Source: Eledone cirrhosa
Lineage: Eukaryota
Assembly: GCA_964016885.1 (NCBI GenBank)
Contig: OZ024743.1
Location: 160,766,001-160,830,000 of the forward strand
DNA: 64,000 nucleotides
Direction of reading: 5' to 3'
Translations under genes and position numbers: made by a program
The notes under the pieces: model-generated
Seen by the model: only the letters and a program-made list of their open reading frames with translations
What the model was told of the DNA's origin: nothing
The model's database searches: none
Shown here: piece by piece, positions 4,090 through 49,598 of the stretch
Numbering within the stretch: the stretch's first letter is position 1
How the letters are laid out: every line of letters starts with the position of its first letter

Positions 4090-4090
<1 letters not shown>
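1978..4090 (+). mobile_element. R4/Dong-clade non-LTR retrotransposon (RT + CCHC + RLE), 5'-truncated copy 1, disrupted
   Basis: Motifs GIFQGD, LFMDDLKL, CRIC..ETVAHIVSEC, RHD and PDLVV..DVACP..K. It has stops and a frameshift and is flanked by (AAT)n. Confidence 0.92.
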
Positions 4091-4133
<43 letters not shown>

Positions 4134-4145
4134 TTAATAATAATA

Positions 4146-5896
4146 CAGGGTGGCAGATAACATCAGACAGTTGCTGGGCAGGAGTATGGGGTCCTGGGAG
4201 ACAGAGTTGACATCAACTGGAGTATCCTTGGGAAGCGTGAAGATCAAGAGAGGTATCTTCCAGGGAGATAGCCTGTCCCCTCTGTTGTTTGTCTTTGCCC
4301 TGATGCCCTTGACCATTATGCTGCGAAAAGTGAGAGCAGGATACAAGTTGGGAAAGGGAGAACTTACCATCAATCACCTCCTCTTCATGGACGATCTTAA
4401 GCTCTTCGGGAAAAGTGAGAAGGAGTTGGATGTGCTTGTTGACACTGTCCGTATTTTCAGCAGTGATATATGTATGCAGTTTGGTATTAGTAAATGTGGA
4501 GTCATTGTGATGAAGAGGGGTAGGTTGAGCAGAAGTAACGGGATCCAGATACCAACAGGTGAGATGATAAAGGAAATTGACTCTGAGGAAGGATACAAGT
4601 ATTTGGGCGTTCTGGAGGCTGATGGCATAAAGAACAAAAAAATGAAGGAATTGTTAAGAACTGAATACATTCGGAGAATAAGGAGCGTATTGAAGTCACA
4701 TCTGAACAGCAGAAATGCCATAAGCGCAGTAAATTCCCGAGCTGTGTCTATTATTAGGTACAGTGCGGGAATTCTGAGATGGAATGTTGCTGAACAAAAA
4801 GAAATGGATAGGAAGACTAGGAAGCTATTGACTATCTACAACATGTTCCACAAGAGGAGTGATGTCGATAGACTCTACCTAAGGAGATCTGAGGGTGGAA
4901 GAGGTATTATCAGCATAGAGGACTGTGTTCAGATGGAGAAAAACAACCTATACAAATACGTGACCTATAGTAAGGAGCCAATGCTCAGAACTGTACTGAA
5001 GGAGGGGACAGTAGGCCAGGGGATGTCCAAGGAGGAAATAACATCAAGGAGGAAGAGCAGCCTTAAGGGAAAATCCCTTCATAGTACCTTCTTTGAGAAA
5101 ACTGAATTTAGAGATCCACAGACATGGAACTGGTTGAGAAGAGGAGACCTCAAAAAGGCTACAGAAGGAATGCTAATGGCTGCGCAGGAGCAGGCCCTCA
5201 AAACGAAGTGGTTGAAGCACCATATTTACAAGGAGGAGGCTAGCCCACTGTGCAGGATCTGTGGAGAGAGAGAGGAGACTGTGGCTCACATTGTATCCGA
5301 GTGTAAACACCTAGCCCAGACCCACTATAAGGGCTGGAGACATGATGTGATGGGCAGGGTGATCCACTGGCACCTGTGCAAAGTAAACAATTTACCACAT
5401 TCTGAGAAATGGTATGAGCATAAGCCAGAGGCGGTGATGGAGAACGATCAAGTGAAGGTGCTGTGGGATTTTAGGATACAGACGGACAAAAAACTGGAAC
5501 ACAATAGACCTGACCTGGTGGTTGTGGACAAAGAAAAATGATCGTGTCTGATTGTGGATGTGGCCTGCCCATTCGACACGAGAGTGCAGGAGAAGGAGAG
5601 GGAGAAAATTAACCGATACCAGGACTTAAAGTGGGAGGTAAAAAGGATTTGGAACTGCCATGAAGTCAAAGTGATCCCGATTGTCATAGGCGCACTGGGG
5701 ACTATCTCCAAACGTTTCCAGGGATGGTTAAAGAAAATCGGCCCCTTCACGCTTTTGGGAACGCTTCAAAAGGCATGCTTGCTGGGAACAGCAAGAACCC
5801 TCCGATACGTCCTGAATATCTGAGGCTGCAGGTAGTGGCTTGATATTCATTCCAACGGACTTTCCAGTTAACCAACATCAATGACTGAGACTCAAG

Positions 5897-5897
<1 letters not shown>
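4146..5897 (+). mobile_element. R4/Dong-clade element, copy 2 (chimera of copies 3 and 1)
   Basis: ORFs 4150..5541 and 5554..5823 are split by the same TGA seen in copy 1. Flanks are (AAT)n. Confidence 0.92.
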
Positions 5898-5940
<43 letters not shown>

Positions 5941-5952
5941 TTAATAATAATA

Positions 5953-7704
5953 CAGGGTGGCAGATAACATCAGACAGTTGCTGGGCAGGAGTATGGGGTC
6001 CTGGGAGACAGAGTTGACATCAACTGGAGTATCCTTGGGAAGCGTGAAGATCAAGAGAGGTATCTTCCAGGGAGATAGCCTGTCCCCTCTGTTGTTTGTC
6101 TTTGCCCTGATGCCCTTGACCATTATGCTGCGAAAAGTGAGAGCAGGATACAAGTTGGGAAAGGGAGAACTTACCATCAATCACCTCCTCTTCATGGACG
6201 ATCTTAAGCTCTTCGGGAAAAGTGAGAAGGAGTTGGATGTGCTTGTTGACACTGTCCGTATTTTCAGCAGTGATATATGTATGCAGTTTGGTATTAGTAA
6301 ATGTGGAGTCATTGTGATGAAGAGGGGTAGGTTGAGCAGAAGTAACGGGATCCAGATACCAACAGGTGAGATGATAAAGGAAATTGACTCTGAGGAAGGA
6401 TACAAGTATTTGGGCGTTCTGGAGGCTGATGGCATAAAGAACAAAAAAATGAAGGAATTGTTAAGAACTGAATACATTCGGAGAATAAGGAGCGTATTGA
6501 AGTCACATCTGAACAGCAGAAATGCCATAAGCGCAGTAAATTCCCGAGCTGTGTCTATTATTAGGTACAGTGCGGGAATTCTGAGATGGAATGTTGCTGA
6601 ACAAAAAGAAATGGATAGGAAGACTAGGAAGCTATTGACTATCTACAACATGTTCCACAAGAGGAGTGATGTCGATAGACTCTACCTAAGGAGATCTGAG
6701 GGTGGAAGAGGTATTATCAGCATAGAGGACTGTGTTCAGATGGAGAAAAACAACCTATACAAATACGTGACCTATAGTAAGGAGCCAATGCTCAGAACTG
6801 TACTGAAGGAGGGGACAGTAGGCCAGGGGATGTCCAAGGAGGAAATAACATCAAGGAGGAAGAGCAGCCTTAAGGGAAAATCCCTTCATAGTACCTTCTT
6901 TGAGAAAACTGAATTTAGAGATCCACAGACATGGAACTGGTTGAGAAGAGGAGACCTCAAAAAGGCTACAGAAGGAATGCTAATGGCTGCGCAGGAGCAG
7001 GCCCTCAAAACGAAGTGGTTGAAGCACCATATTTACAAGGAGGAGGCTAGCCCACTGTGCAGGATCTGTGGAGAGAGAGAGAAGACTGTGGCTCACATTG
7101 TGTCCGAGTGTAAACACCTAGCCCAGACCCACTATAAGGGCTGGAGACACGATGTGATGGGCAGGGTGATCCACTGGCACCTGTGCAAAGTAAACAATTT
7201 ACCACACTCTGAGAAATGGTATGAGCATAGGCCAGAGGCGGTGATGGATAACAATCGGGTGAAGGTGCTGTGGGATTTTAGGATACAGACGGACAAAAAA
7301 CTGGAACACAATAGACCTGACCTGGTGGTTGTGGACAAAGAAAAAAGATCGTGTCTGATTGTGGATGTGGCCTGCCCGTTCGACACGAGAGTGCAAGAGA
7401 AGGAGAGGGAGAAAATTAACCGATACCAGGACCTAAAGTGGGAGGTGAAAAGGATTTGGAACTGCCATGAAGTCAAAGTGATCCCGATTGTCATAGGCGC
7501 ACTGGGGACTATCTCCAAAAGTTTCCAGGGATGGTTAAAGAAAATCGGCCCCGTCACGCTTTTTGGAACTCTTCAGAAGGCATGCTTGCTGGGAACAGCA
7601 AGAACCCTCCGATACGTCCTGAATATCTGAGGCTGCAGGTAGTGGCTTGATATTCATTCCAACGGACTTTCCAGTTAACCAACATCAATGACTGAGATTC
7701 AAGG
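5953..7704 (+). mobile_element. R4/Dong-clade element, copy 3
   Basis: Offset 1807 bp from copy 2, with (AAT)n flanks. Confidence 0.92.
5957..7630 (+). CDS. Uninterrupted C-terminal part of the Dong/R4 ORF: RT domains 4-7, thumb, CCHC zinc knuckle and restriction-like endonuclease (5'-truncated)
   Basis: 557-aa open frame with FMDD, CxxC..H..C, RHD and PD-(D/E)xK motifs. Confidence 0.85.
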   Translation: MADNIRQLLGRSMGSWETELTSTGVSLGSVKIKRGIFQGDSLSPLLFVFALMPLTIMLRKVRAGYKLGKGELTINHLLFMDDLKLFGKSEKELDVLVDTVRIFSSDICMQFGISKCGVIVMKRGRLSRSNGIQIPTGEMIKEIDSEEGYKYLGVLEADGIKNKKMKELLRTEYIRRIRSVLKSHLNSRNAISAVNSRAVSIIRYSAGILRWNVAEQKEMDRKTRKLLTIYNMFHKRSDVDRLYLRRSEGGRGIISIEDCVQMEKNNLYKYVTYSKEPMLRTVLKEGTVGQGMSKEEITSRRKSSLKGKSLHSTFFEKTEFRDPQTWNWLRRGDLKKATEGMLMAAQEQALKTKWLKHHIYKEEASPLCRICGEREKTVAHIVSECKHLAQTHYKGWRHDVMGRVIHWHLCKVNNLPHSEKWYEHRPEAVMDNNRVKVLWDFRIQTDKKLEHNRPDLVVVDKEKRSCLIVDVACPFDTRVQEKEREKINRYQDLKWEVKRIWNCHEVKVIPIVIGALGTISKSFQGWLKKIGPVTLFGTLQKACLLGTARTLRYVLNI

Positions 7705-7742
7705 AATAACAACAACAATAATAATAATAATAATAATTAATA

Positions 7743-9510
7743 ACCAAAAGCCTAGAGATCTTCAGGGTGGCAGATAACATCAGACAGTTGTTGAGCAAAA
7801 GTATGAAGTCCTGGAAAACAGAGTTATCATCGGGCGGAGAATCCTTGGGAGGCGTGAAGATCAAGAGAGGTATCTTCCAGGGAGATAGCTTGTCTCCTCT
7901 GTTGTTTGTCCTGGCCCTGATCCCCCTGACCAGTGTACTGCGAAAAGTGAGAGTAGGATACAAGTTGGGAAATGGAGAACTTACCATCATTCACTTCCTC
8001 TTCATGGACGATCATAAGCTCTTCGGGAAGAGTGAGAAGCAGTTGGATGTGCTTGTTGACACTGTCCGTATTTTCAGCAATGATATATGTATGCAATTTG
8101 ATATTAGTAAGTGTGGAGTCCTTGTGATGAAGAGGGGTAAATTGAGCAGAAGCAACGGAATCCAGGTACGAACAGGTGAGATGATAAAGGACATTGATAC
8201 TGAAGAAGGATACAAATATTTAGGTGTTCTGGAGGCTGATGACATCAAGAACAAAAAAATGAAGGAATTGATAAGAACTGAATACATTCGGAGAATAAGG
8301 AGCGTATTGAAGTCACATCTGAACAGTAGGAATGCCATAAGTGCAGTAAATTCCCGAGCTGTGTCTATTATTAGGTACAGTGCCGGAATTCTGAGATGGA
8401 ATGTTGCTGAACAAAAAGAAATGGATAGAAAGACTAGGAAGTTATTGACTATCTACAACATGTTCCACAAGAGGAGTGATGTCGATAGATTCTACTTAAG
8501 GAGATCTGAAGGTGGAAGAGGTCTTATCAGCATAGAGAGCTGTGTTCAGATGGAGAAAAACAACCTACGCGAATACGTGACTGATAGTAGGGAGCCAATG
8601 CTCAGAATTGTACAGAAGGAGAGGACAATAGACTAGGAGATGTCCAAGGATGAAATAACAAGAAGGAAGAGCAACCTTCAGGAAAAATCGTTTCATAGTA
8701 CCTTCTTTGAGAAAACTGAATTTAGAGATCCCCAGACATGGAACTGGTTGAAAAGCCGAGACCTTAAAAATGCTACAGAAGGAATGCTAATGGCTGCGCA
8801 AGAGCAGGCCCTCAAAACGAAGTGGCTGAAACATCATATTTACAAGGAGGAGGCTAGCCCACTGTGCAGTATCTGTGGAGAGAGAGAGGAGACTGTGGCT
8901 CACATTGTATCCGAGTGTAAACACCTAGCCCAGACTCACTATAAAGGCTGGAGACATGATGTGATGTGCAGGGTGATCTACTGGGACCTATGCAAAGTAA
9001 ACAATTTACCATATTCTGAGAAGTGGTATGAGTATAAGCCAGAGTCGGTGATGGAAAATGATCAAGTGAAGGTGCTGTGGGATTTTAGGATACAGACGGA
9101 CAAGAAACTCGAACACAATAGACCTGACCTGGTGGCTTTGGACAAGGGAAAAAGATCGCGCCTGATTGTGGATGTGGCCTGCCCATTCGACACGAGAGTG
9201 CAAGAGAAGGAGAGGGAGAAAATTAACCGATACCAGGACTTAAAGTGGGAAGTAAAAAGGATTTGGAACTGCCATGAGGTCAAAGTGGTCCCGATTGTCA
9301 TAGGCTCACTAGGTACTATCTCAAAGAGTTTCCAAGGATGGTTAAAGAAAATTGGTCCCGCCCCGCTTTTTGGAACACTTCAAAAGACATGCTTGCTGGG
9401 AACAGCAAGAACCCTCCGATACGTCCTAAATATCAGAGGCTGCAGGTAGTGACTTGATATTCATTTCAACAAACTTTCCAGTTAACCAACATCAATGACT
9501 GAGACTCAAA

Positions 9511-9511
<1 letters not shown>
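7743..9511 (+). mobile_element. R4/Dong-clade element, copy 4, more diverged
   Basis: ORFs 7767..8636 and 8640..9449, the same 3'UTR and an (AAT)n tail. Confidence 0.92.
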
Positions 9512-9545
<34 letters not shown>

Positions 9546-9786: not shown

Positions 9787-12700
9787 TTACAGACACATAC
9801 TCAGAGAAGGCCCATTCATTCGGGCCATACTTGCTTCTCTCACCCATCTTTCAACAAAATGCTGGGAAGACAGCACTTCCCTCTCTACCCTGATTTTCCT
9901 TTTCAAATGAAATTGAAAAAGTTAATCAGAGCATCACCGAAGAGGTAAGTGCGCGTCTTCAGCCCTTTCAAACGTGTCCACCATACTATCCCTTTCGCCA
10001 TGGCCACCAGACAGATAAAAACTGCCTGCCCTTCCCGGCTAAAGGAAGGGGGCGGGGCAATCCTCACGATGGACTCAGCTGATAGCTGGATCCGTCCTAC
10101 ACGTGACAGCAGGTGTTCGACATAAACCCACAAGTCAGTAATGCTCAGACACTGGACGAATGCGTGCAGGACGGTTTCGTCGCCCTGTGCGCATCTCGGA
10201 TATGCCCGGCTGACGGTACCTCCATGCCTGTAGAGTTTATCCCGAACTGGCAAAGCTCCTCGGTAGCACTGCCAGGCCAGGGATTTCTGGAAGTTGTCCA
10301 TAGGCCCCGGCCCGAAAGTCCTTCCGAAGAGATTGGCTAGTTGATTTTCATCGACGCCTAGAGTTTCTCCAAGTACGTCGTCGCTCTTCCCCTCCACTAA
10401 TCCCCTATAGAACGCCAAGGTGGAGTTTCCACCGATCACATTGCCCGATTGGTCGAGGGCTGTGAGCGCCTGAAGACATTCCAGCCTCCAAGCGCTCCCT
10501 CTCGGTCTTCGCTTGACCCAGGACTGCAGTTCCGTCAAGGAGACGAGCTGGGGAAAAACGTGTCTAGCAAACGGCGACCACACCTGATCACCGTCGAGGA
10601 AGAGGTGGAGATGTCGTAGCCTGAGCGCGTGTCTGCGCATCATCAGCCACGGAATGCCCAGCCCTCCACGTAGCGGGTGTTGACAGCAGATGGACCGCCT
10701 GACTATCGGAGCGCGTCCCTTCCACAAGAAGCGAAAGAGCAAACGCTCCAGCGCAGTCAGGCGGGGCTTAGGACAAGGTACGACGGTCAGGCAGTAGTAG
10801 ATGACGGATGCGATGTACGCATTCGCCACCTCCGCTCGACCTTTCAGGGATAGCTTCCTCTCGGCCCATTTCTGGGTGAGAGAAGCCACCCTGCTCGTCA
10901 ATTCGTCCCAGTTTTTGTCCGTCTGGAGGTCTGGACCGAACCAGACCCCTAGCAATTTAACCGGTCCGTCCGTCCAGCGCCCGACGACGCTGTTGGACGG
11001 CATGGACCTGCCTCTCCAGGTGCCGAGCTGCAGGCCCACTGACTTTTCCTGGTTGATCATTGCTCCTGTCACCGCTTCGTATTCTCTTAGTGTAGTGCCG
11101 ATCGCCTCGATGTGTTTGGCGTTCGACACCACTACGGTGACATCGTCCGCATATGCTGACACGGATCTTCCGCATCCTAGTTCACGCGGGACCCCCTCAA
11201 CGTCTCCAGTTTGTGCAGTAATGGCTCGAGAGTCAATACGTACAATTGGGACGAGAGGGGACATCCTTGGCGGACCGAGCGCATGATGTTGAACGGTTCC
11301 GAAAGGTGACCGTTCACTCTCACTACAGAGCAGATGTCGCTGTGCATGGCAGCGATCCAGCCTCTGATAACGGGCCCAAAGCCAGCCGCACGCAGGACTG
11401 CCGCTAGGTAACGATGGTCGACCCTATCGAAGGCTTTCGATTGATCTAAATTGATCAAAGACCCACCCTTGCCAGGTTCCCTAGCTACCCTCTCTACGAT
11501 GTATCGCATGAGGTGGAGGTTGTCGTGGATAGATCTGTCGGGAATGGCGCATGTCTGTGCCTCTCCCACCATACCACCAACGACAAGCGCCAACCTCTTT
11601 GCTAGCACCTTGGCCAAAATCTTGAACTCTGTGTTTAGCAGAGTTATGGGCCTAAAATTATCTATGTTATCCCCCTTGTTCGGATCCTTTCTCAGCAGCG
11701 CCACCGCTCCTCGGCTCACAGAGCTGGGAATTCTCCCGTTCTGTTGCCAGTTGCAGTAGACGTCCGCCAAGAGGCCTCCGAACAAGTTTGGCATTGTTAC
11801 GTAAAGTTCATAGGGCAGACCATCCAAACCAGGCGATTTACCCCTTGTGCAACTAGTCATTGCATCCCGTACTTCAGCGGTTGTTATCGGCTTTTCGCAA
11901 CACTCCGCCTCAGTGGCCGAAAGCCGCAGCAGTCCGTCGAGGTAGACACTAAATTCCATCCCTCGATACGGCCCGCCACTGCTCCCGAACAGTTGAGCGA
12001 AGTGTCTTTGAAAAGCTTCACACATTTGCCCGGGATCGAGTAGCATGCGCCCGTCGTGGTCCACCAAAGACCGGATCGTGGCTTTGTTGCCACGACGCGC
12101 CTCCGCCACTCGGGCCCATTGAACGGCTTTCGTCCCCTCGTGTCTGAGAGCACGCACCCTAGCTCTGGCAACGCAGCCTTCGTGATTTGCATTGAAGAAT
12201 TGGTCAAGGGCCAATTTCGCCGCAAGTACGTCGGTCGCGATGCCTTTGCTAAGCGCCTCATCTAATTTTCTAACTAGTTCTCCATCTGCTCTATTTTTCT
12301 CTATTGCTAAAGTCTTACTAAACCTAATGGACTCTATTCTAATTGCTCTTTTCAGAGCAAACCACCACTTGTTGTTGACGATGGCCCCCGTCAACGCCCG
12401 CTTAACTAGTTCGCTAATCCGGTCTCTGTAGGCCTTGCGCGCTGGTAAGGACGCGTTTAGCTTCCAGTAGCCGGGTCCTCGCCTATGAAGCCTCTCTAAG
12501 TCAAGCACACAGATCACGAATTTGTGGTCCGTGTAGCTGACTATCTTGAATTGTGGACAGCCTATGCTAGACCTATCTATTTCCCTACAAAATACTCTAT
12601 CTAGATATGATCTGGATGACCCTATGCGATTTGTCCAAGTCCACATTGGTACATTCGGGAAATCCATTCGGTACCTGTCAGACAGTTCAAAACGTCTGAG

Positions 12701-13204
12701 CAGGTTGGTGAGACTCTTGCACCCTCCTTCCCTATCCACCAATGCCACACAATCCCAGCGTGCATCTAAGATCCCGTTCCAATCGCCCACTAACACTAAA
12801 GAGCGGGACGTTCCAAGAAAGGTCTCCAGACGCCGGAAGAAATCAGGCCGCCCTGCTCCTGTCGGGGCATAGACGGCCACTAACCTGAAAGCTTGCCCGT
12901 TTCCGCTGGTCACGTCCAGCACCACCAACTTACCTTCTGGGTCCAGAAAGATGGCCCGTATGGCAAGATCCAAACCTCTCCGAAAAAGCACAGCAACTCC
13001 TCCACCCGATCCCGGACGGCTGGGAGATGCGTACACATCGTAGCCGCCGAAGATCGGTGCGAAAGCCTGTGCTTCGGAGATTCTGGTCTCGCTGATGGCC
13101 ACTACATCTATGTTTAGTGACCTGAGGTCGTTGAGCAGGTGGCCCTGCTTCCATGACGACCCCAAGCCACGCGCATTTATGCTGCCTATTCTGAGTGAGG
13201 TCAT
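9787..13204 (-). pseudogene. Tx1 ORF2 (APE endonuclease + RT + C-terminal zinc finger), frameshifted near 11200 and 9905
   Basis: Motifs SINARGL, GDWN, YLDR, YTDH, KSPGLDG, RQGCPLS, AYADD and ETVLHAFVQC across ORFs 11177..13204 and 9903..11264. Confidence 0.88.
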
Positions 13205-13238
13205 GTTGAAAAGGAGTGGAAAAGATGGGAAAGACCAC

Positions 13239-15233
13239 TTACCTTACTTCTCGTAGGGGAAGGACGGTTTTTCCATCCTTTTCACTGCTTGTGGCCTCCT
13301 CAGGAAGGATGTCCTTATAAATCCTCCTGGAGAGTGCTTGTCGGAAGTCTCCGATGTCTTTGGGGAATTTTTGTTTTAGTGTCATGTACGTTTTCTGTGT
13401 GATGCGAGTGATTTGTATGTGTGGAGGTGGTGTGAATTTTGGGGTTGTTGTGTAGTCTTTTTCTGTGATGCTGGTGTTGTGTTGGATGTAGTGTAATAAT
13501 TGCTTGTTTTTCAAATTTAATGCTGTGTAGTGTGTATCGTTTTGGTTGTTTTGTTTTGTTTGCGTTTGTTGTGGGTTTGTTTCTGTTTCGCATTTTGGTG
13601 ACTTTTGTGGTGTAGGTGATGGTGGTGTTGGAGTTAATGATGGTGATGGTGTTGGTGTTTGGGTTGATGGGGTTGGTGATGCTGGTGTGGATGGTGGCAT
13701 ATCTGTCCTAACTTTTTTGTTTCTTAGTTTATTTGTTTCCCTCTGTATTTTGTTTTTGGAGGGGGAAGGAAGAGAATTTTTTTCTTTTTTGGTTTCTTTT
13801 TTATTTCCGGATATCGTTTCCCACTCCTCGTCGTCACAATCTGTCTCCAGTTGTGATAGGCCGGGGAGTGGAAAATCCTCCACAGGCGTTAGTTTTGGTT
13901 GTGGCGTGGTGGATGGTGTAGGCGGTGGTGCTAGTTCTGAAGCGTTGGGTGGTGGTGGTGTTGGTTTTGCTGGTGGTGGTGGTGGTGTTGGTTTTGATAC
14001 TGTTGCTGGGGTTGTTGCTGTTATAGTTGCTTCTCTTGTTGCTGCTACAGTTGTTGCTGCCATCTCTGCTACTGGTGGTGTTGATGATTGTGTCACTGGG
14101 GTGGGTAGGAGAGGTGGCCTCAACCTTTTAGCCTGAGGGCAGAAAGCCCTTAGGTGGGTTCCTTCACCACAAACGACGCACCTAGGTCTTCTGCCCTGGA
14201 CAATTACCGTGAGGTGGCTGCCGTCAGTGAGGTCTATTACCTCTGGGATCTCCTCAATGTTTTTTTGGTCCGCTTGGATCAGGAGCTCCATCCCAGATCC
14301 GGACCAGTTCTCCTGCTTTTCTTTTGCTATTGCTATTATTTTTGTGTTGGCTTCGATTCCGGCGAGGACGGCCGCTATTAGCCAGGGAATTTTGATGGCC
14401 GGTGGAACGTGGGTCACCCTGATCTTTACGAGTCTCTGGCCACAATAGCTTGGGTCGAGTGTGAAGTCGTCACTTCTTAATGGGGCCATGGAGTGTTCTC
14501 TAGCCTCCTCTGGTGTTTCAAAGAACACGTCCACGGTTCCATACTTCTGCCCACGTCTGATGTGGGTTTTTCTTGCCCACATATGTCCCAAAGCTTTTTG
14601 GATTTGGGACTCGGATGCCCGTTCCACTCGGCGCGATTTTACATTTATCGTTCGATACGACACGGTGCATAGGCGCCGATGCTCCATTTTATTAGGTGGG
14701 GGGTTAGGCTGACCCTGTACCCATCTTTCTTTACTATTTGTTTGGCATTTTCTAAATCCTCCTGAGTTATCGTAAATGCTTCGAATTGTTTTGCTACTCT
14801 GGCGAAACTGGGGGGGGGGGGTTATAATGTCATTGTTGTTGTTGTTGCTATCGTTATTTGTGTTAATATTAATTTTAGTTTCAGTTGTGGTGGTGGTGAC
14901 GTCAGTCGTCTTTGGTGGGGAAGAGTCCATTTTGCTTGATTTCATTTCGACATCACGAGTTAATTTATTTTTTTCTTCTTTTGTTTCTGTTGTAGCGGTG
15001 GTGGTGGGGGTGGTGGTTGTTGCGGTGGTCGTGGTGGTGGAGGCTTTAACACCTGCAGCCATTGGTAATGGCGGGAAATGAATGTCTGCCTGAGACAAAT
15101 TTAAAATATTGCTACTGCTTATACTTTTTGTAGTGTTGGCAAACGTAGTAACATTTACAATGGTGGTGTCGGTGTGAGGTGTTAATTTGTGAGGAAGGCT
15201 TTCGGCTGCTTGGTGCAGAAGTGAATTAGCCAT
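13239..15233 (-). CDS. Tx1 ORF1 (gag-like; CCHC knuckle CVVCGEGTHLRAFC, Pro/Thr-rich tail)
   Basis: Intact 664-aa ORF immediately upstream of ORF2. Confidence 0.85.
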   Translation of the reverse strand: MANSLLHQAAESLPHKLTPHTDTTIVNVTTFANTTKSISSSNILNLSQADIHFPPLPMAAGVKASTTTTTATTTTPTTTATTETKEEKNKLTRDVEMKSSKMDSSPPKTTDVTTTTTETKININTNNDSNNNNNDIITPPPQFRQSSKTIRSIYDNSGGFRKCQTNSKERWVQGQPNPPPNKMEHRRLCTVSYRTINVKSRRVERASESQIQKALGHMWARKTHIRRGQKYGTVDVFFETPEEAREHSMAPLRSDDFTLDPSYCGQRLVKIRVTHVPPAIKIPWLIAAVLAGIEANTKIIAIAKEKQENWSGSGMELLIQADQKNIEEIPEVIDLTDGSHLTVIVQGRRPRCVVCGEGTHLRAFCPQAKRLRPPLLPTPVTQSSTPPVAEMAATTVAATREATITATTPATVSKPTPPPPPAKPTPPPPNASELAPPPTPSTTPQPKLTPVEDFPLPGLSQLETDCDDEEWETISGNKKETKKEKNSLPSPSKNKIQRETNKLRNKKVRTDMPPSTPASPTPSTQTPTPSPSLTPTPPSPTPQKSPKCETETNPQQTQTKQNNQNDTHYTALNLKNKQLLHYIQHNTSITEKDYTTTPKFTPPPHIQITRITQKTYMTLKQKFPKDIGDFRQALSRRIYKDILPEEATSSEKDGKTVLPLREVR

Positions 15234-15457
15234 TTTTTTTCAAAGAAATTTTTTGATAATAATAAAAGTTTAAATTTTGGGCACAAAGCCCCAATCTTTT
15301 TGGGTGTCCTTTTCGGAAAACGATGTATGTGCGCTTATATATGGTTAACAATAAAAAATTTCCATAAATGGCAATTTTTAAGAAACGGAAATAACAAACT
15401 TTTGCGGAGCTCACGATGATACGATTTACTACGTAGGTCGCCAATAATAATAATAAT

Positions 15458-15640: not shown

Positions 15641-15823
15641 ATTGTTTCTACTTTAGGCACAAGGCCAGCAATTATCCCAGTGCATTACTGGTACTTTATT
15701 TTATCGACCCCGTAAGGATGAAAGGCAAAGTTAACCTCGGCGGGATTTGAATACAGATTATAAAGGGACGTAACTATGCTGGAAAGCATGGCGTCCGACC
15801 CTCTACCGATACTGCCAATCCAC
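15641..15823 (-). mobile_element. tRNA-derived SINE (octopus-type family)
   Basis: A box TGGCAGTATCGG and a degenerate B box; homologous to 47478-47667. Confidence 0.8.
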
Positions 15824-16060: not shown

Positions 16061-16338
16061 ATAATAATAAATTTGATGACTAAAATCCAAATATATGACT
16101 AAATCCAAATATATATCAAATATATAAGAACCGTAGAGAAAATATTTATTAAAATAACAGATTAAAGTTTAAGCAAAGAATTGCTGCTTTCACCCTTAAC
16201 GGGATCTTCCGAAATGTTGCAACGTTTTTTGAAATATCCACTTCTGCGTTTACAGATTGACTTTGTTAGTTTCAGAAGATCCCGTTAAGGGTGAAAGCAG
16301 CGATTCTTTGCTTAAACTTTAATCTGTTATTTTAATAA
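16058..16338. mobile_element. Penelope family B mini-element: two inverted pseudo-LTR pieces between (TA)n tracts
   Basis: 16058-16215 matches 39925-40085; 16242-16338 matches 41738-41836. Confidence 0.75.
16268..16318 (+). ncRNA. Hammerhead-like motif with CAGAAGA (U4A) core
   Basis: AGUUU-CAGAAGA-uCCC guuaa GGGu-GAAA-GCAG..UUGC-UU-AAACU. Confidence 0.55.
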
Positions 16339-23312: not shown

Positions 23313-23379
23313 TATTTTATCTGATGAGGATTTACTGTTGAAGTTAACTCAGTACCTCTGAAATGTGTATAATAAAATA
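23313..23379 (+). ncRNA. Type I hammerhead with canonical core and extended stem II
   Basis: UAUUUUAU-CUGAUGA-GGA uu UACUG..CAGUA cc UCU-GAAA-UGUGUA-UA-AUAAAAUA; 8-bp stem I. Confidence 0.7.
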
Positions 23380-23474
23380 TACTTTATCACAAGAATATCT
23401 ATTTTGTTAATATTTTGAATTAATATATATATATATGAATTATAAGAATCAAAGAACTGTTCAAAACATGTTTA

Positions 23475-23521
23475 TGCTTACAACTGTTTCCTCCAAACCG
23501 AGGTTTGGATTCTTCGGAGCA
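23475..23521 (-). ncRNA. Type I hammerhead with CCGAAGA (U4C) core, left arm
   Basis: Reverse complement of 24063-24109. Confidence 0.65.
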
Positions 23522-24062
23522 ATTTATTATTGAATGAACACTTATATGACCTCCTTTTCACCCAAGATACATATGCAAATATTGTGGGTCAACATTCATT
23601 ACAGCATTTAGTGTGGCAGTACACATTTAGAGATTACATTCATATTAAAAGATACAAACAAAAATACAGGTTAAAATACAACATGAAATTAAGCGGTTAT
23701 AGAGTGCAATGGTTATACGTGTGGCAAGCACGTGCGTCTTGTTTATATAGTGTGGCAGATCAACCAGATCAACCCCCTTAACACTCTTGATTACCTGCTT
23801 AAGTGCTTCTATTACACGTAACTCTCTGCCACACTATATAAACAAGACGCACGTGCTTGCCACACGTATAACCATTGCACTCTATAACCGCTTAATTTCA
23901 TGATGTATTTTAACCTGTATTTTTGGTTGTATCTTTTAATATGAATGTAATCTCTAAATGTGTACTGCCACACTAAATGCTGTAATGAATGTTGACCCAC
24001 AATATTTGCATATGTATCTTGGGTGAAAAGGAGGTCATATAAGTGTTCATTCAATAATAAAT

Positions 24063-24109
24063 TGCTCCGAAGAATCCAAACCTCGGTTTGGAGGAAACAG
24101 TTGTAAGCA
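24063..24109 (+). ncRNA. Type I hammerhead with CCGAAGA (U4C) core, right arm
   Basis: UGCU-CCGAAGA-a UCCAAAC cucg GUUUGGA g-GAAA-CAGUUG-UA-AGCA. Confidence 0.65.
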
Positions 24110-24320
24110 TAAAAATGTTTTGAACAGTTCTTTGATTCTTATAATTCATATAACTGCTCTGTAAATCATCTGATGTTATTACATTGAGCTATTTAACTTA
24201 CTGGTAATAAGGTAGTAATATATTACTGCCTACCACTATTTAGGATTTATAAAAATATATATAACTACAAAAGGTTTTTGTATTTGCATAACCATAAATA
24301 GTATACTTAATACTTAATAC

Positions 24321-24999: not shown

Positions 25000-27900
25000 G
25001 TTAGAATATCAAACATGACACCGTACACAAACACACACATACATGTTTGGAGGTGTACATGCCCGCCTCCAAATATACATGTACGCCTCCAAACATATAC
25101 ACAGATGTATACACATTAACACGTATATAGGACATGCAGATATGCATATATTGGTATATTCGCTCATATAGTGCATACGTCGGTGCATACATACACTCCT
25201 GCATACATAAACATCTATACTCTCTTTCATAGAGAATCAAGCATACAAACATACAAATACAACTCTCTCTCTACGCACGAATACACTAACCTCCAGAGAC
25301 AGTTATACGTATACACACACGGTACACTCTCACATAAACACGTGAACATACTATTATGACTTGTGTAATATTGAGCCAGTAATGTATACAAGCTCGTAAA
25401 CACACACAAACACACAAACAATAACATTAATACACACTCGCAAATGCACATACCCCGTTAGATTATACGGATTTGGGGCTTATGATTTATATCAATGGTC
25501 CCTTTTTGGGGGGTTTATAGTTTCAGGAGAGACACGGAAAGGGGTCGTGCAAGATTATAATCATTCTTATTATACAGAAACTACGTAATATGACGTTTGC
25601 AGCTTGAGAACATCTGTCTAGACCCTAGTAGTGGAAAATAGAAGTGCGTGTAAGTGGCTCGTTTAACTGGAAATAAAGATGATGTAGTAAGAACGTGCGT
25701 GTTCTAACTTTTCTTTGAGTGGTATGGAAGATGTATGAGGTTAAATATAACCGTTTGGTTTATATTTGGCTTGGGTTCTAAGTGGGCTTTCTTTTCTGAT
25801 CGTATTTAATTACGGATTAAGGCAAACGACGTAATATCCATGCAGTGTGACCGTCAAGTAATATTGCACTTTCTCCACTGTCGAATATTTTCTGTACACG
25901 CACAGATTCTGGTGATGTCTAAAGTGAAGATGCTTAAATTGGACTCGATTAGATCATTCAGTTGCTGGTCCTCTGTACTTGTTGTTAGCGGCATGCATTG
26001 CAACACAGTGTTTGGGGCTAGCGAGGCTGTTAATGTTTTAGCTATTTCTAAATGTCTTTTGTTTTTTCATGTTTGTCTGTGTTGAGTGGGAGAGGTAGTA
26101 TTTCGATGATATGCTAGTAGTGTTCTAGTGTGTTGAATATGCGTCTGGAGGTTTGGAAGTATTTTTCCTGTAGTACCAAGGTTCAACCTATTGCAACAAC
26201 AAACTGTGCCCCTGATATGTCCAGATAGTCTTTCATTTTAAGTATTTGTGTTTCTGTGTCAATGTGCTCTGAGGATGTGCTTGTGTGTTTCACGAGCTTG
26301 TACATATTGCTGACTCAATATTACACGAGACATATTAGTGTGTTCGCGTGTTTGTGCGTCTGTGTGTATATGTGTATATGAGTGATTATGTGTGTGTGTG
26401 CGTGCTAGTGTGTGTATGATGTGTATAAGTGTTCCTGGGTGTTAGTGTATTCGTGTGTAGAGAGAGTTTAAGGGCACTAGTTTACTATGACTTAAATAGA
26501 ACAGCAACCTACACAGGGCCGATTTAATCTGTTTATACACCCTTGTTGGTTCTGTTGGTTATATATGGTACCTATGAATGTTTGTTTATTTTGGCTAATT
26601 ATACATTTAGTTGTAGAGACTGCGAATGCTGGAGGTTCTTGCAACAACAAACTATAAACAAATATCTTTTCATTTTTTCGTATTTTTGTTTTAGTCTATA
26701 TGTGGTTTGTATAAAGCCCGAGATGATGCACTAATTTATATTCTATTTAGGACTAAATTGTGGTTTGTTGTGGGGAGATTAGAGTCCCACTCTGAGCTGA
26801 CATAAACTGATGAATCTAATGCCTTTCAGTTGGATAAATGCGACACATGTGAATGCTTCATATATGCGTGTACGCTGTTCTATCTTCTGTAATGTCTTCT
26901 GTGCTGTGTGAATGTTGTGGGGGATGTATGTATGTAATCCTCAGTATATGTTTATGTCGATGAGTGTGAGGTGTTGTGTTTAATGTTACTTAATGTTGCT
27001 AGTAAAAACGGTGATTGTAGATTCTTTGAATTGCACTTTGGCGTTTGGGAAACAGGTATATAAGTAATTAATTGTTTCTTATATAGGCACAAGGCCAGCA
27101 ATTTTGGCGGAGGGGAAAGTCGATTAAAACAACCCCAGTGCGTGACTGGTACTTTATTTTATCGTCCCCGTAAGGATGAAAGGCAAAGTTAACCTCGGCC
27201 GGATTTGAACTCAGATCATAAAGGACCGTAACTCTATGCTGCAAAGCATGGCGTCCGGCCCGCTACCGACACTGCCAATCCACCGCCCTAGGTATACAAG
27301 TAATTAATATTGTGCTGGAATAATTTGTAGCAATGGCTGGAGCATAGTAAGGAGATATATGCGTGGTGTACTTTGTGTATGAGACTGTATATTCTATGGG
27401 CAGATGGGAAAAGGTAAATGTATGTATAGAACGAAAAGAATAGTTGAGAAAACTGATTCATGTGGAACATCATTCGGGAAATGAAAAACACTCTGAATGC
27501 CTGTGTATACTACATAGGTTCGGACATCTAAGAGATAGTTTGGTAGCTAATGTTTTGTGTTGATTCTTCTGTATGCGTTGAGTACTTTGTTTAGCGCATA
27601 GGAATTTGACGAGTATGTTTGTTAGGGACTTTAAAATTGCAATGAGCCCACTTTTTTCGGATTGTGGGAAGCAGGTAGCATTGATATGAGAAGTTGGGTG
27701 TATTGGTATATGTACTAATGCCTTTAGAGTATATTTTTAGGTGTATTTCTGTAATTTTGTCAGGCCTTAACACTTTTCAGTTTGGCGATTTCCCCATAAC
27801 TTTTCTAATATTCTAATGGATGGAAGTGGCCTAAGTTTTGATCTGTCTTGCGTTTCGTATTTCTGTCTACATTATAGCGTTTGGTTCTTAGTGGATGACT

Positions 27901-31841: not shown

Positions 31842-33601
31842 CGAAGGAAATGTGGTAAGGAACCAGGTGGACCATAACGCACCAAAGTACTCAATACTTG
31901 AGGTAGTAGAGTGGGTAATAGGAACCAGTAGGACCCCGACAGCTGAGCTCAAGCCGTTTCGACAATCACTTTGACCATATATGGTCAAAGTGATTGTCAA
32001 AAATCAGTAGTAATTCTGTGGTTGCAAATTAGTAGGGGAGATGGTGGCTAAACCTGCCAGTAAGAGAAAGAGGGGAGGGGGTGGAGTAGACCCAATCAAG
32101 CGTTGGTAGTACCAGCTACAGCTGGGCATGAGGTCAAAGAAGATACAGGGGAGGGGGAGGGGGAGGAAGTCGGAACGGTAGGTAGAACAATGGGGGGTAG
32201 AAATATATAGAAAAGCAAATAAGTGTAAAGAAAAAAGTAAAGTAAATTAAATTCTACGACCTAGGTGTCAGGCTATTGGTAGGCTAGAATAAAATAAAGA
32301 AAGAAAGAAAGAAGTAAATAAATAAATAAATAAATAACGAAAAAAGTAAAAGAACTAGGTGGGACGGAATAGGCAAGGACCCTTTTAAGAGGTATAAGTA
32401 CGTAAATGATACGGTGACGGGTCAACAAAAGGGGCCAAATACTAAAGAGACTACCACGAAATACACAATAAAGGTTTCCATCCCGGGCCAGCAACGACCC
32501 AGTGCAGCAAAGTGAACTTGTACGAGATAGTAATTCTGAGTCCCGAGAAAAATATATACTAATGCTAACTCTAAAAGATCTAAGACAAGCTACATGAAAG
32601 TTCGTACGAAATAAAGGTAGAATACGGAGAAATAAATTCAGAATCCCCCCCGCCCAGAAGAAAAGCGAAGCAAGAGATACTGAAACGAAAAAATAAGGCA
32701 TAAGTGCCACTAAGAAATATAGAGGGCACAGAGAATAGTGGGAGCGGTCGGAAAAAGGGGGCAAGTATCCGGGGTCTAAGCCAACTGCTATAAAGGGCGG
32801 AGTCCGCCAAATCTATCATAGACTAGGGGAGGGGGTGGTGGGGTACTAAGGCTACATGGGGCCAAAGGGCAGCCTCGGGTGGGCGAGAAAAGACGCCGAC
32901 AAAGGAGAAGAGCTGGGGTAGAAGGACAAAGGAGAGAGGGGGGAAGGAAATAAAGGAAGCGATAAAAGAATACAAAGAAGATCTTACGTCTTCCTTGGCA
33001 AGCAGGGGTTACCCATTGCAAAATCGGCAAGTGGGGTGTTATAGCCCTAGTCTACCCCCCCCCCCCCCCCCCCCCCGGGTCATTATGGGGTTTGAGGGCG
33101 AGGTAAGTCCTACGCAATCTATGTTTACATGCAGTAACCAGTTCATCTTTCTTGTTTAGGAGTTGGTCCGTCGAAAACAGCATTTGTAAAGTTTCCTCCG
33201 AGCATAAATTGCACGGACGGCGTCCTCCCGTGTAAGAATTGGCTCTGGACAGTAATCTCCAAGTGAGATCATAGGTGATGTTGTTGTCCTTGAGGTCCCA
33301 TATGTGGCCCGAAAGAGTAGTGGCGTGACGCAGGGCCGGGTTTCGGAAGGTATGTCTATGTTGGTATAGCCGGGTCTTGAAGTCACATGCGGTAAGTCCT
33401 ATATACTGGCAGGTTTAGCCACCATCTCCCCTACTAATTTGCAACCACAGAATTACTACTGATTTTTGACAATCACTTTGACCATATATGGAATTACCCC
33501 TTGAGAAGATCGGCTATTTAAATACCAGGATAAATTTTCATTTAGTCCAGAATTAGCCGTCGAAACGGCTTGAGCTCAGCTGTCGGGGTCCTACTGGTTC
33601 C

Positions 33602-33604
<3 letters not shown>
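31840..33604. mobile_element. Non-coding Penelope-type element (family C) with inverted pseudo-LTRs, between (TA)n tracts
   Basis: 31973-32062 is the reverse complement of 33404-33491, and 31918-31963 of 33559-33604. A perfect palindrome lies at 31961-31998. Confidence 0.75.
33496..33589 (+). ncRNA. Type I hammerhead, U3-A8 variant with long stems
   Basis: ACCCC-UUGAGAA-GA(U)CGGCUA..UAGCCGUC-GAAA-CGGCU ugagcuc AGCUG-UC-GGGGU; predicted cut after C33584. Confidence 0.85.
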
Positions 33605-35202: not shown

Positions 35203-35583
35203 ATAGAGTTAGAAGTAGAAACACCGGGGAAAAATGAGGAAAAATATATATCATAGAAATGACTTCTATAGGACTAAATCTGTTTCATTCGTATGAAATC
35301 ACCAGGATTGATTTCATACTAATGAAGCAGTATTAGACCTTTAGAAGTCATTCTATATAAAATAACGATGCTTATACATTACCAACGTATTGAGTTTCAC
35401 ATATATATATATAAAAGAAAATTTCGCTCTACAAGGCTAAATACAATAAATATAATCTGAGTTTTTCGAATATTAATAATAGCATTCGATACGTTTGCAA
35501 TTTTGCAATCAAGCCTCAATTTTATAGCCATGTCAGTAGAATGAACACTTCATTCTTGCTCTTGTGTTGGCATGCAAACAGAC

Positions 35584-35627
35584 CTGCAGACACTAATGTT
35601 TCTTGGTATCACCCGTCATCAGTACAG
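35584..35627 (-). ncRNA. Type I hammerhead with canonical core
   Basis: CUGUA-CUGAUGA-cgGGU gau ACCaa-GAAA-CAUUAGUG-UC-UGCAG. Confidence 0.75.
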
Positions 35628-35687
35628 CTCACTGTTCACCTGCCAAACTGTCAGAGCTAGTGAAAATATATGCTATTTTCAAAAATA

Positions 35688-35790
35688 CAGTCCTGATTTG
35701 CATATTAGCAGACTGACTGATCAGTCAGATCTGCATATTAGCAGATCCATTGATCAGCCAGATTTGCATATCAGCAGACTGGCCAGTCAG
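35688..35790. repeat. Three 33-bp tandem repeats each carrying ATTTGCAT or ATCTGCAT
   Basis: cagtc(c/a)gat(t/c)tgcatattagcaga... repeated three times. Confidence 0.8.
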
Positions 35791-36049
35791 TTTCCTGTAT
35801 ACGAGCGATTAATGGCCGCCTTTGTCAAATTCAAATAAAAAAGAAAATTTCGCTCTACATGGCTGAATACAATAAATGTAATCTGAGTTTTTCGAATATT
35901 AATAATAACATTCGATTCGTTTGCAATTTTGCAAACAAGCCTCAATTTTATAGCCATGTCAGTAGAATGAACACTTCATTCTTGCTCTTGTGTTGCAAAA
36001 TTGCAAACGAATCGAATGTTGTTATTAATATTCGAAAAACTCAAATTAC

Positions 36050-36159
<110 letters not shown>

Positions 36160-38032: not shown

Positions 38033-38129
38033 ATAATAATAAATTTGAAGACTAAAATCCAGAGTTTCAGAAGATCACGTTAAGGGTGAAAGCAGCGATT
38101 CTTTGCTTAAACTTTAATCTGTTATTTTA

Positions 38130-38173
<44 letters not shown>

Positions 38174-39931: not shown

Positions 39932-41836
39932 TAATAAATTTGAAGACTAAAATCCAAAGAGGGCTCGATAATGATAAATATATATCAAATATATAAGAAC
40001 CGTAGAGCAAATATTTATTAAAATAACAGATTAAAATTTAAGCAAAGAATCGCTGCTTTCACCCTTAACGGGATCTTCTGAAACTAACAAAGTCAATCTG
40101 TGAACGCAGAAGTGGATATTTCAAAAAACGTTGCAACCGGAGGAAGACAGGAAGACGATACTTTGGTTCGTGGAAACGTTCCCTGGCAAAGAACGGGAAA
40201 AAACGAATATAAAACGTCATTAATAGGAGCGGTGAAAAACAATTACGCGCAAAGACAGAACCACGTTTATGGTATAAAAGAAGTCGTAGACTAATCTTCT
40301 CTTAGGTGGTTCATAGAGACGTTCTCTAGCAATGAACGGAAAAAACGAAGATAATACGTCATATGTGGGGCGTGGAGAACAATTGCACGCAGAGACAAAA
40401 CCACGTAAATGGTATAGCTGAAGTCGTAGACTAAAATTCTAACTAGGAGACCGAAAGAATCTCCGTTTCAGAGTAAAGAATAAAGTAAATAAATACAATA
40501 CAGGGGTAATATAAATTAAATAAATGCATACACAAATTCAAATACGTACATACACAAGCATACGCAAAACACTTGCTTTAGGTATACAAAACCACGCACA
40601 TATAAATATGTGTGTGTGTGTGCGTGTATACAAATAAATAATTAAATAAACGTATATTAATAAATAAATACGTATATAACAAGCGCACCCACATACCTAC
40701 ATGTAAATACACAAATGTTCGAAGACGTAAGTCAGCCATAACATGAAGTACACAAATACACACGCCCTACATACGTACGAACCTGCATACACACGCAGAC
40801 GCAAAACTCCCGTATACACATAACCAAACCATATGTACCAGAAAATATAAAAAATGTATACGCCACAACATAATCAATCAAATATACGTATGAGAAAGTA
40901 TACGTACCTTCACAAAACATACAGGTAATATATACTTACCTATGCAAATAAGTAATGGTATAAACAAAACATATACTTAGCTACCACATCAAGACGTAAA
41001 AAAATCCACGTATAGATCCTACTATCCGTTAGGGTATAATGTGGGGCTGTAATACAGGAAAATTTTGTGCAATTTATGTTTACAAGCCGAAATTGCCTCA
41101 GATTTTTTTGTTTAAGGTGTGGTCTGTGGCGTAGAGTATTTCCAGGGCCTCGGCGGCGCAGAGGTGACATGGTTTTTTATTTCCGTTATACGATCTAGCC
41201 CTAGCTAGGATCTCCCAGTGTAACTTATATTGGGTGTGGTTGTCTTTTAGACTCCAGAAATAAGCTGAAAGTGAGGTCATATTCCTTCTAAGAGGGTAAC
41301 GAAAAGAATGGGAATGCATGTAAAGACGCAGCTTGAATCTATTGGCGGTTAACCCTATGTAGACCCTACGGGACGTGGGTGTTTCAACCTTACATTTGTA
41401 GACAATGTTACTAGAGAGGCATTTCCCGGATAGGGGGCAATCGACCCGATTCCTACAAATACAGTTAGTACTAACTACAGGCTTGCACGTGTTCCTTCGG
41501 TTAGGTAGTTTAGCTAAATTTGAAACTGTGATGTTATGTGCAAGGTTAGGAGTCGTAGAGTAAGAAATTTTAATAGTATTTCTATTAAAAATTTTACTAT
41601 ATTTATGTGTAGGGGGAAAATGCTTCGTAATAAGGGAAAGAAAGATCTTAGCTAATGGTGTGGCCACCTCCATATTATATGGTGGGTTATACCAACAAAT
41701 GCGACGGGATCTATTACGTCTAGGTCTATCTTCGTCCTCTGCGTTTACAGATTGACTTTGTTAGTTTCAGAGGATCCCGTTAAGGGTGAAAGCAGCGATT
41801 CTTTGCTTAAATTTTTAATCTGTTATTTTAATAAAC
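39925..41836 (-). mobile_element. Penelope-like element family B, 5'-truncated, with an inverted pseudo-LTR at the truncated end
   Basis: GIY-YIG ORF present; 40014-40111 is inverted relative to 41738-41836; (TA)n flanks; hammerhead-like motifs at 40035-40085 (-) and 41763-41813 (+). Confidence 0.88.
41098..41673 (-). pseudogene. Penelope GIY-YIG endonuclease fragment
   Basis: CICRNRVDCPLSGKCLSSNIVYKC..VYIGLT..FKLR..H, followed by CHLCAAE. Confidence 0.85.
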
Positions 41837-42032
<196 letters not shown>

Positions 42033-47477: not shown

Positions 47478-47667
47478 TGGAAGGCGGTGGATTGGCAGTA
47501 TCGGTAGAGGATCGGACGCCATGCTTTCCAGCATAGTTACGTCCCTTTACGATCTGAGTTCAAATCCCGCCGAGGTTGACTTTGCCTTTCATCCTTACGG
47601 GGTCGATAAAATAAAGTACTAGTAATGCACTGGGTAATTGCTGGCCTTGTGCCTAAAGTAGAAACAA
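47478..47667 (+). mobile_element. Full-length tRNA-derived SINE with an 18-bp target-site duplication
   Basis: TSD ttaatctatgtgaagcca at 47460-47477 and 47668-47685; A and B boxes present. Confidence 0.92.
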
Positions 47668-47775
47668 TTAATCTATGTGAAGCCAGCGAGGGAGCTTCAA
47701 CATGGTTACGCTACTTGTTTGAAACAGCAGCTATATTTCCATCAATTCCGATCATAGCACTTACAAAAAGAATAA

Positions 47776-48043
47776 TGGTTTCTACTTTTGGCACAAGGCC
47801 AGCAATTTTCCCAGTACATTACTGGTACTTTATTTTATCGACCCCGTAAGGATGAAAGGCAAAGTTAACCTCGGCGGGATTTGAACTCAGACTGTAAAGG
47901 GACGTAATTATGCTGGAAAGCATGGCGTCCGACTCTCTACCGAATGCTTTCCAGCATAATTACGTCCCTTTACGCTTTACGGTCTGAGTTCAAATCCCGC
48001 CGAGGTTAACTTTGACTTTCATCCTTATGGGGTCGATAAAATA
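47776..48043. mobile_element. SINE on the minus strand (47776-47943) fused to an inverted partial SINE on the plus strand (47944-48043)
   Basis: Same family as 47478-47667. Confidence 0.85.
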
Positions 48044-48174
48044 AGAATAATAGATAATATATTTGGGCGGAAAGTGAAATATGGTCTCGTCACATTTATA
48101 ATTCCTTTTGATCTTATGTCTGCTTGGTCAAAATGGATGCGAGGCTAAAAAACAACAATAACTACTAGAGTAGT

Positions 48175-48734: not shown

Positions 48735-48772
<38 letters not shown>

Positions 48773-49031
48773 GGAAAAAATGAAACGAAATTTCATTTCC
48801 CACTCTTAGTACGGCTGTTACTTAAATATAAGTATGTACACCTACATACATATATGTATACAGACGTACAGTAGTATGTATATATATACATACATGCACA
48901 CATATATATATGTACGTATGGATTCACCGAACATTTATTATAATGCTAGGTGTGTTTGTAAACAAATATCCCGTATTAAGCCGTAGTGTCTAGCAACCAT
49001 CGTTGTTCGTTTGTTCAACACTGACAAAGGA

Positions 49032-49074
49032 ACGCTGTACTAGTTTCAAGCTTATTAGCTATCGTCAGCAACGT
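49032..49074 (-). ncRNA. Type I minimal hammerhead with canonical core
   Basis: ACGUUG-CUGACGA-uAGCU aaua AGCUu-GAAA-CUAG-UA-CAGCGU. Confidence 0.88.
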
Positions 49075-49455
49075 ATACCTTCCTGCCAAATTGTTGAACG
49101 TATATACTTACCTTATGCATATTAACGGCTGAGTAGCCCAATTTGCATATCGAGTGGGTTAATCGGCCGGGTGCACCGTAAACGATAAACGGGAAAAAAA
49201 TGAAACGAAATTTCATTTCCCACTCTTAGTACGGCTGTTACTTAAATATAAGTATGTACACGTACATACATATATGCATACCGACGTACAGTAGTATGTA
49301 TATATATATATACATACATGCACACATATATATATGCACGTATGGTTTCACCGAACATTTATTATAATGCTCGGTGTATTTGTAAACAAACATCCCGTAC
49401 TAAGCCATAGTGTCTAGCAACCATCGTTGCTCGTTTGTTCAACACTGACAAAGGA

Positions 49456-49498
49456 ACGCTGTACTAGTTTCAAGCTTATTAGCTATCACCAGCAACGT
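49456..49498 (-). ncRNA. Second hammerhead copy with mutated core CUGGUGA
   Basis: Stems identical to 49032-49074; A6G change. Confidence 0.75.
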
Positions 49499-49553
49499 AT
49501 GCCTACCTGCCAAATTGTTGAACGTATATACTTACTTTATGCATATTAACGGC

Positions 49554-49598
<45 letters not shown>

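Follow-up and report, generated by a model that had tools for sequence, protein, structure and literature searches.

Penelope-type elements and hammerhead units in the window

The window, a stretch of 64,000 nucleotides of Eledone cirrhosa DNA, is rich in microsatellites and contains three Penelope GIY-YIG fragments (P1, N1 and N2) together with elements A, B, C and D, whose hammerheads were called by a descriptor search for type I folds. An Rfam scan of the window gave no hammerhead and no snRNA among 65 weak matches. Atlas look-alikes of one protein of the window mostly carry the label Mollusca, on very few records, and the repeats may resemble those of octopus.

Family B is represented by 1.37 units of a 426-nt element inserted between (TA)n runs at 35408..36055 on the minus strand, as delimited by repeat comparison; the two parts of its direct repeat, 35414-35569 and 35840-35995, are 96% alike. 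One end only carries a 37-nt tail (35409..35445, minus strand; 35835-35871 in unit register), which was defined from loose ends in (TA)n, and a tail-less copy of the B end, inverted and adjacent on the 5' side, lies at 35993..36055 on the plus strand. The (TA)n junctions of B copies fall at two places 37 nt apart, 35835 in 38 contigs and 35872 in 67 contigs and 756 reads, and the window copy uses both types, one at each end. Penelope-like insertions are marked by a partial tandem, an inverted 5' copy, a tail of 30-40 nt and a microsatellite target, according to PMC8557442; B has the first three marks in full, its tail being the 37 nt just described. The B unit at 35500-35925 was used as the query on 4 of 15 sequencing runs, and it matched 8547 contigs and 45583 RAD reads under one species label (organism A), 32 contigs of organism B and 1864 contigs of organism E; the run with the 8547 contigs may be close to the source of the window. 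No RNA data set was among those listed as containing B. Tandem joints of 426 and 422 nt occur in the contigs and reads of this family.

The type I hammerhead core of B (CUGAUGA..GAAAC..GUC) lies at 35589..35622 on the minus strand, with an extended helix I at approximately 35560-35650. Helix II is weakened in the window copy. The majority letters of the family differ from that copy at 35604 (15348 of 16415 reads) and at 35615 (15355 of 16186), and because these letters pair helix II the ribozyme is intact in family B. Read starts at 35571/35574 and read ends at 35831 belong to a RAD library and were taken as restriction ends, not as RNA ends.

Family A consists of about 1.9 units of an element of about 420 nt, again between (TA)n runs, at 48771..49559 on the minus strand; repeat comparison pairs 48770-48825 with 49188-49245 and 48923-49135 with 49347-49559. 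The descriptor search found its type I hammerhead core, with a short palindromic helix III, at 49038..49068 (minus strand), and a second, mutated copy (CUGGUGA) starts at 49492. Of the partial tandem, the inverted 5' copy and the tail, A has the partial tandem only. Element C (23432..24152) was recognised by repeat comparison as a Penelope-like 3' end of 328 nt that is present as an inverted pair, with arms at 23432-23759 and 23825-24152, a (TA)n run at its left arm, and a hammerhead with the core variant CCGAAGA at 24067-24105 on the plus strand, mirrored at 23479-23517 on the minus strand. The microsatellite target, (TA)n, is present at the ends of A and B and at the left arm of C. Since A and B combine Penelope insertion marks with hammerhead units, we class them as non-LTR retrozymes that are non-autonomous Penelope derivatives.

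The frame NQINPLNT in C (23760-23825, plus strand) resembles the C-terminus of P1, INKYGPRLNT, and from this likeness C may be the end of an autonomous Penelope element; the similarity of C to P1 at the DNA level is not significant (84/500). The right flank of C (24153-24320) has a hairpin resembling the splice-donor word discussed below and, at 24282, a further copy of the 9-mer TATGCAAAT that precedes a (TA)n run by 39 nt; this flank may be more Penelope-derived sequence. Element D, a fourth hammerhead-like fold found by the descriptor search, lies at 23321-23371 on the plus strand and has an 8-bp helix I and an AUA triplet. About 50 nt separate its end from the (TA)n run that D and C have in common, and it has no octamer upstream.

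P1 (19536-20701, minus strand) is an RT/GIY-YIG fragment with a Pfam GIY-YIG match at E 3.6e-7. Its protein led to 20 candidate loci in viral contigs and 66 in prokaryote genomes, of which 0 were confirmed as related in either set. N1 (41098-41760, minus strand) has a 3' region that extends to about 39991 and an inverted 5' copy at 41738-41838, and N2 (33052-33414) is 55% identical to it. Neither N1 nor N2 had a Pfam match by hmmscan; N1 lies near Atlas GIY-YIG/HTH_animal clusters at 0.96, one of them with GIY-YIG on 28% of its members. A relaxed descriptor found no hammerhead in P1, N1 or N2, and in a pLTR homology comparison these three had only short words in common with A, B and C. The N1 end at 40011-40140 (minus strand; copies at 16142-16338, 38063-38137 and 41738-41838) and the N2 end at 33404-33604 (plus strand) have an AGAAGA-hairpin-GAAA arrangement that resembles a hammerhead core, without helix I/III by the descriptor used; these ends are possibly a ribozyme variant. 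A repeat family of about 180 nt (15643-15823, 27134-27287 and 47487-48044), in which no octamer or hammerhead was found, has inverted and partial-tandem arrangements like those of Penelope-mobilised elements.

An octamer common to Penelope-type ends

The earlier note had placed an octamer at 35696, 35762, 49141 and 24004, and all four sites are present; ATTTGCAT at these positions accounts for 4 of the 11 octamers of the window. B has the 10-mer ATTTGCATAT in the first and third of its 33-nt repeats (35696..35705 and 35762..35771, plus strand), and in the middle repeat, at the centre of a hairpin, the one-mismatch form ATCTGCAT (35729..35738, plus strand). A has its 10-mer at 49141..49150 (plus strand) and a half site with two mismatches at 49113-49122, and the octamer of C at 24004 is mirrored at 23573. 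We found the octamer also in P1 (19415..19422, minus strand), 113 nt past the stop codon, and in N1 (40942..40949, minus strand), 148 nt past the stop codon. Counted in unit register, insertion A has its 5' end (49559) about 6 nt past the octamer on the downstream side, with 67 nt left before the second hammerhead; this is a single case.

The only 10-mer common to A, B and C is ATATGCAAAT, of which there are 0 copies in 48 kb of background; any 10-mer common to three was seen in 0.2% of 3000 shuffles and in 0.5% of real background triples. The 9-mer TATGCAAAT is present in five of the six Penelope-type 3' regions (A, B, C, P1 and N1, and absent from that of N2; null 1/1000) and is the only 9-mer in at least four of the six ends, while the 24 words one change away from the octamer each occur in two of them at most. 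Its one background copy in 45.7 kb is the one at 24282, 130 nt beyond C. These statistics describe one 64-kb window, and the regions were set once the octamer positions were known, by the rule that all GIY-YIG fragments and all hammerheads found were taken. A set of twelve regions, composed of the six ends, D and five other hairpin/repeat candidates, has the word in 5/12, the additions all being misses (null 4/1500 for the 9-mer); at 8-mer length this test is uninformative (431/1500). With B left out, the null of the enrichment test is 42/2000. Of the regions that lay outside the earlier note (P1, N1, N2 and D), two of four have the word, with nulls of 19/20000 at 9-mer and 169/20000 at 8-mer length, and two of the three autonomous Penelope 3' regions have it. 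The sharing of the octamer among Penelope-type ends within the window is real and statistically supported.

A chance likeness, amplified by local duplication and palindromes in AT-rich repeats full of ATAT and TGCA and accompanied by read-through transcription only, would be another account of the word. TATGCA is common (30 in 45.7 kb), the octamer copies of B are internal duplications and the sample is small; the second motif of the earlier note, treated below, is matched by 10% of shuffles, and none of its 19 matches in metagenomes has a hammerhead. We consider coincidence unlikely nevertheless: nulls corrected for the look-elsewhere effect, from shuffles and from real background, are 0.001-0.02, those of an independent validation set are 0.001-0.008, and the winning word is exactly a known POU site. 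A 5' T is preferred at the octamer site. The full consensus word of a POU/Oct site, counted in either orientation, was enriched over background.

The word accompanies Penelope ends and not ribozymes, since P1 and N1 have it without a hammerhead and D has a hammerhead without it. It lies anywhere between about 150 and 930 nt from the 3' end. On the sense strand it reads ATGCAAAT in A and B and ATTTGCAT in C, P1 and N1, and its occurrence in both orientations agrees with a site in DNA and not with a loop in RNA. Two of the three copies in B are perfect, although the perfect letter breaks the symmetry of the local hairpin. The first of them stands in the loose-end consensus of 8638 reads with an agreement of 0.93, so that the conservation expected by the earlier note holds for the octamer in the majority sequence of B; the TTAAT of the second motif proved to be a minority form in organism A. 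Neither perfect octamer has a position among the 40 best-supported of 147 variants from three organisms. Conservation is not above that of the family, with 0 of 7 changes, all taken from the best 40 of the 147 variants, in 20 of 109 nt (p 0.23).

From octamer to hammerhead core there are 72 nt in A, 73 nt in the window copy of B and 55 nt in C; the distances of 67-69 nt (A and B) and 52 nt (C) given previously are right if counted to helix I. Most B reads have some 12 extra nucleotides at 35686-35691, which lengthens the interval to about 85 nt in most copies and makes the equal spacing of A and B, true of the window copy, an accident. A fixed spacing of octamer and hammerhead was therefore rejected.

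The CGAG motif and two further readings

The second motif, CGAG..TTAAT.GGCCG, lies where the earlier note had put it, close to the unit junction and beside an A-run: at 49151..49170 (plus strand) in A, 20 nt from the A-rich element end, and at 35802..35819 (plus strand) in B, as CGAG..T(T/A)AAT.GGCCG, 17 nt from the A-rich tail end. It occurs nowhere else in the window at one mismatch or fewer and is absent from C and from the Penelope ends of P1 and N1. Some common 4-5-5 pattern was found in 151 of 1500 shuffled pairs, and in 76 of 3000 with the position fixed, so that enrichment over shuffles, clear for the octamer, is marginal for this match (p 0.03-0.10). Between it and the octamer there are 2 nt in A and 32 in B. 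With this variable spacing and the absence of the CGAG motif from C, the proposed two-part module of hammerhead elements did not survive, whereas its octamer is enriched, and in a wider set of ends. In viral contigs the module pattern had 0 matches; its 19 metagenome matches lack hammerheads and (TA)n runs and, with a best BLAST E of 0.017 to A, B or C, were read as chance.

In reads of organism A, position 35810 is occupied by A in 6148 of 6351 of the plus mates and in 134 of 474 of the minus mates, which makes TAAAT the majority form and TTAAT the minority form there; organism E mostly retains T. At 35819, G in 5540 of 5961 reads of organism A lengthens the match to GGCCGG, and 76 contigs of organism E, with a loose end at 35813, retain this GGCCGG core. 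A short stretch of GC close to the priming end may therefore be important, on evidence that is thin, and we regard the CGAG..GGCCG match as a separate, weak similarity of A and B beside the priming end and outside any fixed module.

As far as tested, A and B are unrelated, as had been claimed. Their whole units align with a high score when the motifs are unmasked (reached by 0/1000 shuffles); with the motifs masked, 106 of 1000 shuffles reach the score and the similarity outside them is not significant, nor is that of the post-hammerhead segments (219/2000) or of the end and tail segments (424/3000). Common ancestry was rejected, because the alignment exceeds chance only through the motifs.

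Both words might act in RNA, CGAG/GGCC as a docking site of the Penelope RT past the priming site and the TGCA-cored repeats as arms of a circular-RNA rod. The place of the motif, which is 17 nt away from the element end in B and 20 nt in A (fixed-position p 0.025), is consistent with this, as are the folding of the octamer array of B at z -4.0 and that of circular monomers of A and B, which at -119 and -135 kcal/mol are more stable than 40 shuffles each (-91±5 and -95±5 kcal/mol); the word also closes a hairpin of 4 pairs in C and of 8 in N1. Such a role is quite improbable for the octamer all the same, because its orientation is not the same in all elements, in A, B and P1 it is flanked by no more than 2 pairs, TGCA would suffice for pairing and leave the full 9-mer superfluous, and the GGCC motif has no structure in common between A and B (z +0.6 for the region in A). 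For the CGAG motif alone, a role in RNA is the better reading.

In snRNA genes the DSE lies at -250 to -170 and the PSE at -70 to -40, and ATGCAAAT is the Oct-1 site of distal elements, according to PMC9652321. A promoter of this type, as in newt satellite 2, with the octamer as distal element and CGAG..GGCCG or another word as a SNAPc-bound PSE, would draw on the defining DSE site (PMC9652321), on precedent in a hammerhead satellite of the newt (cited in PMC2220036) and on a GC-rich motif that A and B share and whose GGCCGG core recurs in organism E; it is the most doubtful of the readings, since the place expected for a PSE, about 100-200 nt downstream of the octamer, has none, the CGAG motif lies upstream of the octamer on the hammerhead strand, is only 2 nt (A) or 32 nt (B) away on the other strand, which would yield antisense RNA, and is missing from C, P1 and N1, and A and B have no significant similarity downstream of the hammerhead (219/2000). 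Thus, of the snRNA-type signature seen in the earlier note, the octamer stands, and the CGAG motif is on the wrong side of it, or too close to it, to be a PSE. No word resembling a Pol III B-box was found in A, B or C.

A candidate POU site carried by Penelope ends

The explanation that we prefer, with a probability of about one half, is that A and B are non-autonomous Penelope-like elements, that C is a truncated, inverted Penelope end, and that the octamer is an enhancer-like host POU site. The double-stranded 9-10-mer (A)TATGCAAAT would be the site for a host POU-domain factor which, 55-150 nt upstream of the hammerhead, would help polymerase II to start upstream of the ribozyme. The hammerhead would trim the leader and cut again one unit later, and the resulting monomer, probably circularised, would carry the octamer as RNA. 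A Penelope RT/GIY-YIG protein would then copy the monomer, with priming at (TA)n, and by copying more than a unit would again place an octamer before the hammerhead and so regenerate the promoter at each jump. The trimming, unit-length and reverse-transcription steps of this scheme follow a published model (PMC4209133 and PMC7229834). The sequences establish the anatomy, the fold of the hammerhead, the high copy number and the enrichment of the word regardless of its orientation; POU binding, transcription, the polymerase and circularisation are steps that we infer. A promoter role for the octamer is plausible.

The class of element is already known, and the octamer in Penelope and retrozyme ends is the new part. 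A and B resemble animal non-LTR retrozymes in their short tandem non-coding units and the type I hammerhead with short palindromic helix III (PMC7229834), and in a strongly folding monomer with Penelope-like elements alongside (PMC7229834; bioRxiv 10.64898/2026.07.22.740005). Retrozymes seem to lack promoters, according to a 2020 review (PMC7761336), and promoters go unmentioned in PMC6155905; arrays of POU sites are predicted in A and B, and B differs further in its full Penelope insertion anatomy of tail, inverted copy and (TA)n target. The pLTRs of endonuclease-positive Penelope-like elements offer a second likeness, with a hammerhead near the end and internal regulatory sequence (PMC8557442, PMC4209133 and PMC2377424), and B shares with them the partial tandem, inverted 5' copy, tail and microsatellite target. 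Penelope pLTRs contain a promoter and tissue-specific elements; the promoter of Drosophila virilis Penelope is of the Inr/DPE type, and the term 'Oct' occurs 0 times in the paper concerned (PMC2377424). We found no report of octamers in Penelope or invertebrate retrozyme ends in a search of literature listings, mainly of freely accessible papers.

Coats, Zhang and Epstein reportedly found in 1994 that the promoter of newt satellite 2 includes an octamer. This satellite is likewise a hammerhead tandem repeat with an internal promoter, in its case of the snRNA type (cited in PMC2220036). There the full snRNA-type promoter was reportedly shown by experiment and here the octamer alone is found; the elements of the window have no PSE at the proper distance, and the word is found in autonomous Penelope ends as well. 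The octamer is also what the elements have in common with snRNA gene promoters, which are built of DSE and PSE (PMC9652321); they differ in having no element in the PSE position and orientation and in an octamer that is repeated and reversible.

An extension of our preferred reading, namely that Penelope-like elements and retrozymes from molluscs to newts generally recruit POU/Oct factors through an octamer upstream of the hammerhead, and so promote their own transcription from a promoter that rolling reverse transcription rebuilds, is on balance unlikely. If true, such recruitment would explain the high and broad expression of retrozymes and tie them to POU-rich tissues, for example the nervous system or germ line. 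On the transcription of retrozymes the sources differ, the review describing the elements as seemingly promoterless (PMC7761336) and the old work on the newt having found a promoter. A specific, mutable 9-base site common to unrelated Penelope and retrozyme families makes the matter testable. If the site is functional, the high-copy family B, with its 8547 contigs and 45583 reads, would scatter clustered POU sites throughout the genome.

The intron of Penelope overlaps its promoter, and words that look like splice sites occur in A, B and N1. The 13-mer AGGTAAGTATATA, a perfect splice-donor word, is common to A (49101-49113, minus strand) and N1 (40929-40941, minus strand), in both of which a TGCAT site immediately precedes it. 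At the 5' edge of the extended helix I, A (49082-49090) and B (35639-35647) have TTTGGCAGG on the minus strand, with pairing partners that differ between the two. This word could be a candidate splice acceptor, by analogy with D. virilis Penelope, in which the intron ends at helix I (PMC4209133).

The window also contains LINE sequences. At 2319-9522 the 3' part of a LINE is repeated head to tail in four copies of 1807 nt; every copy ends at (AAT)n, two of the copies are 99-100% alike, and from their motifs we take them to encode an RT and a restriction-like endonuclease. A nearly full two-ORF LINE follows on the minus strand at 9903-15239; by its motifs it presumably encodes an AP endonuclease and an RT and is L1/Tx1-like.
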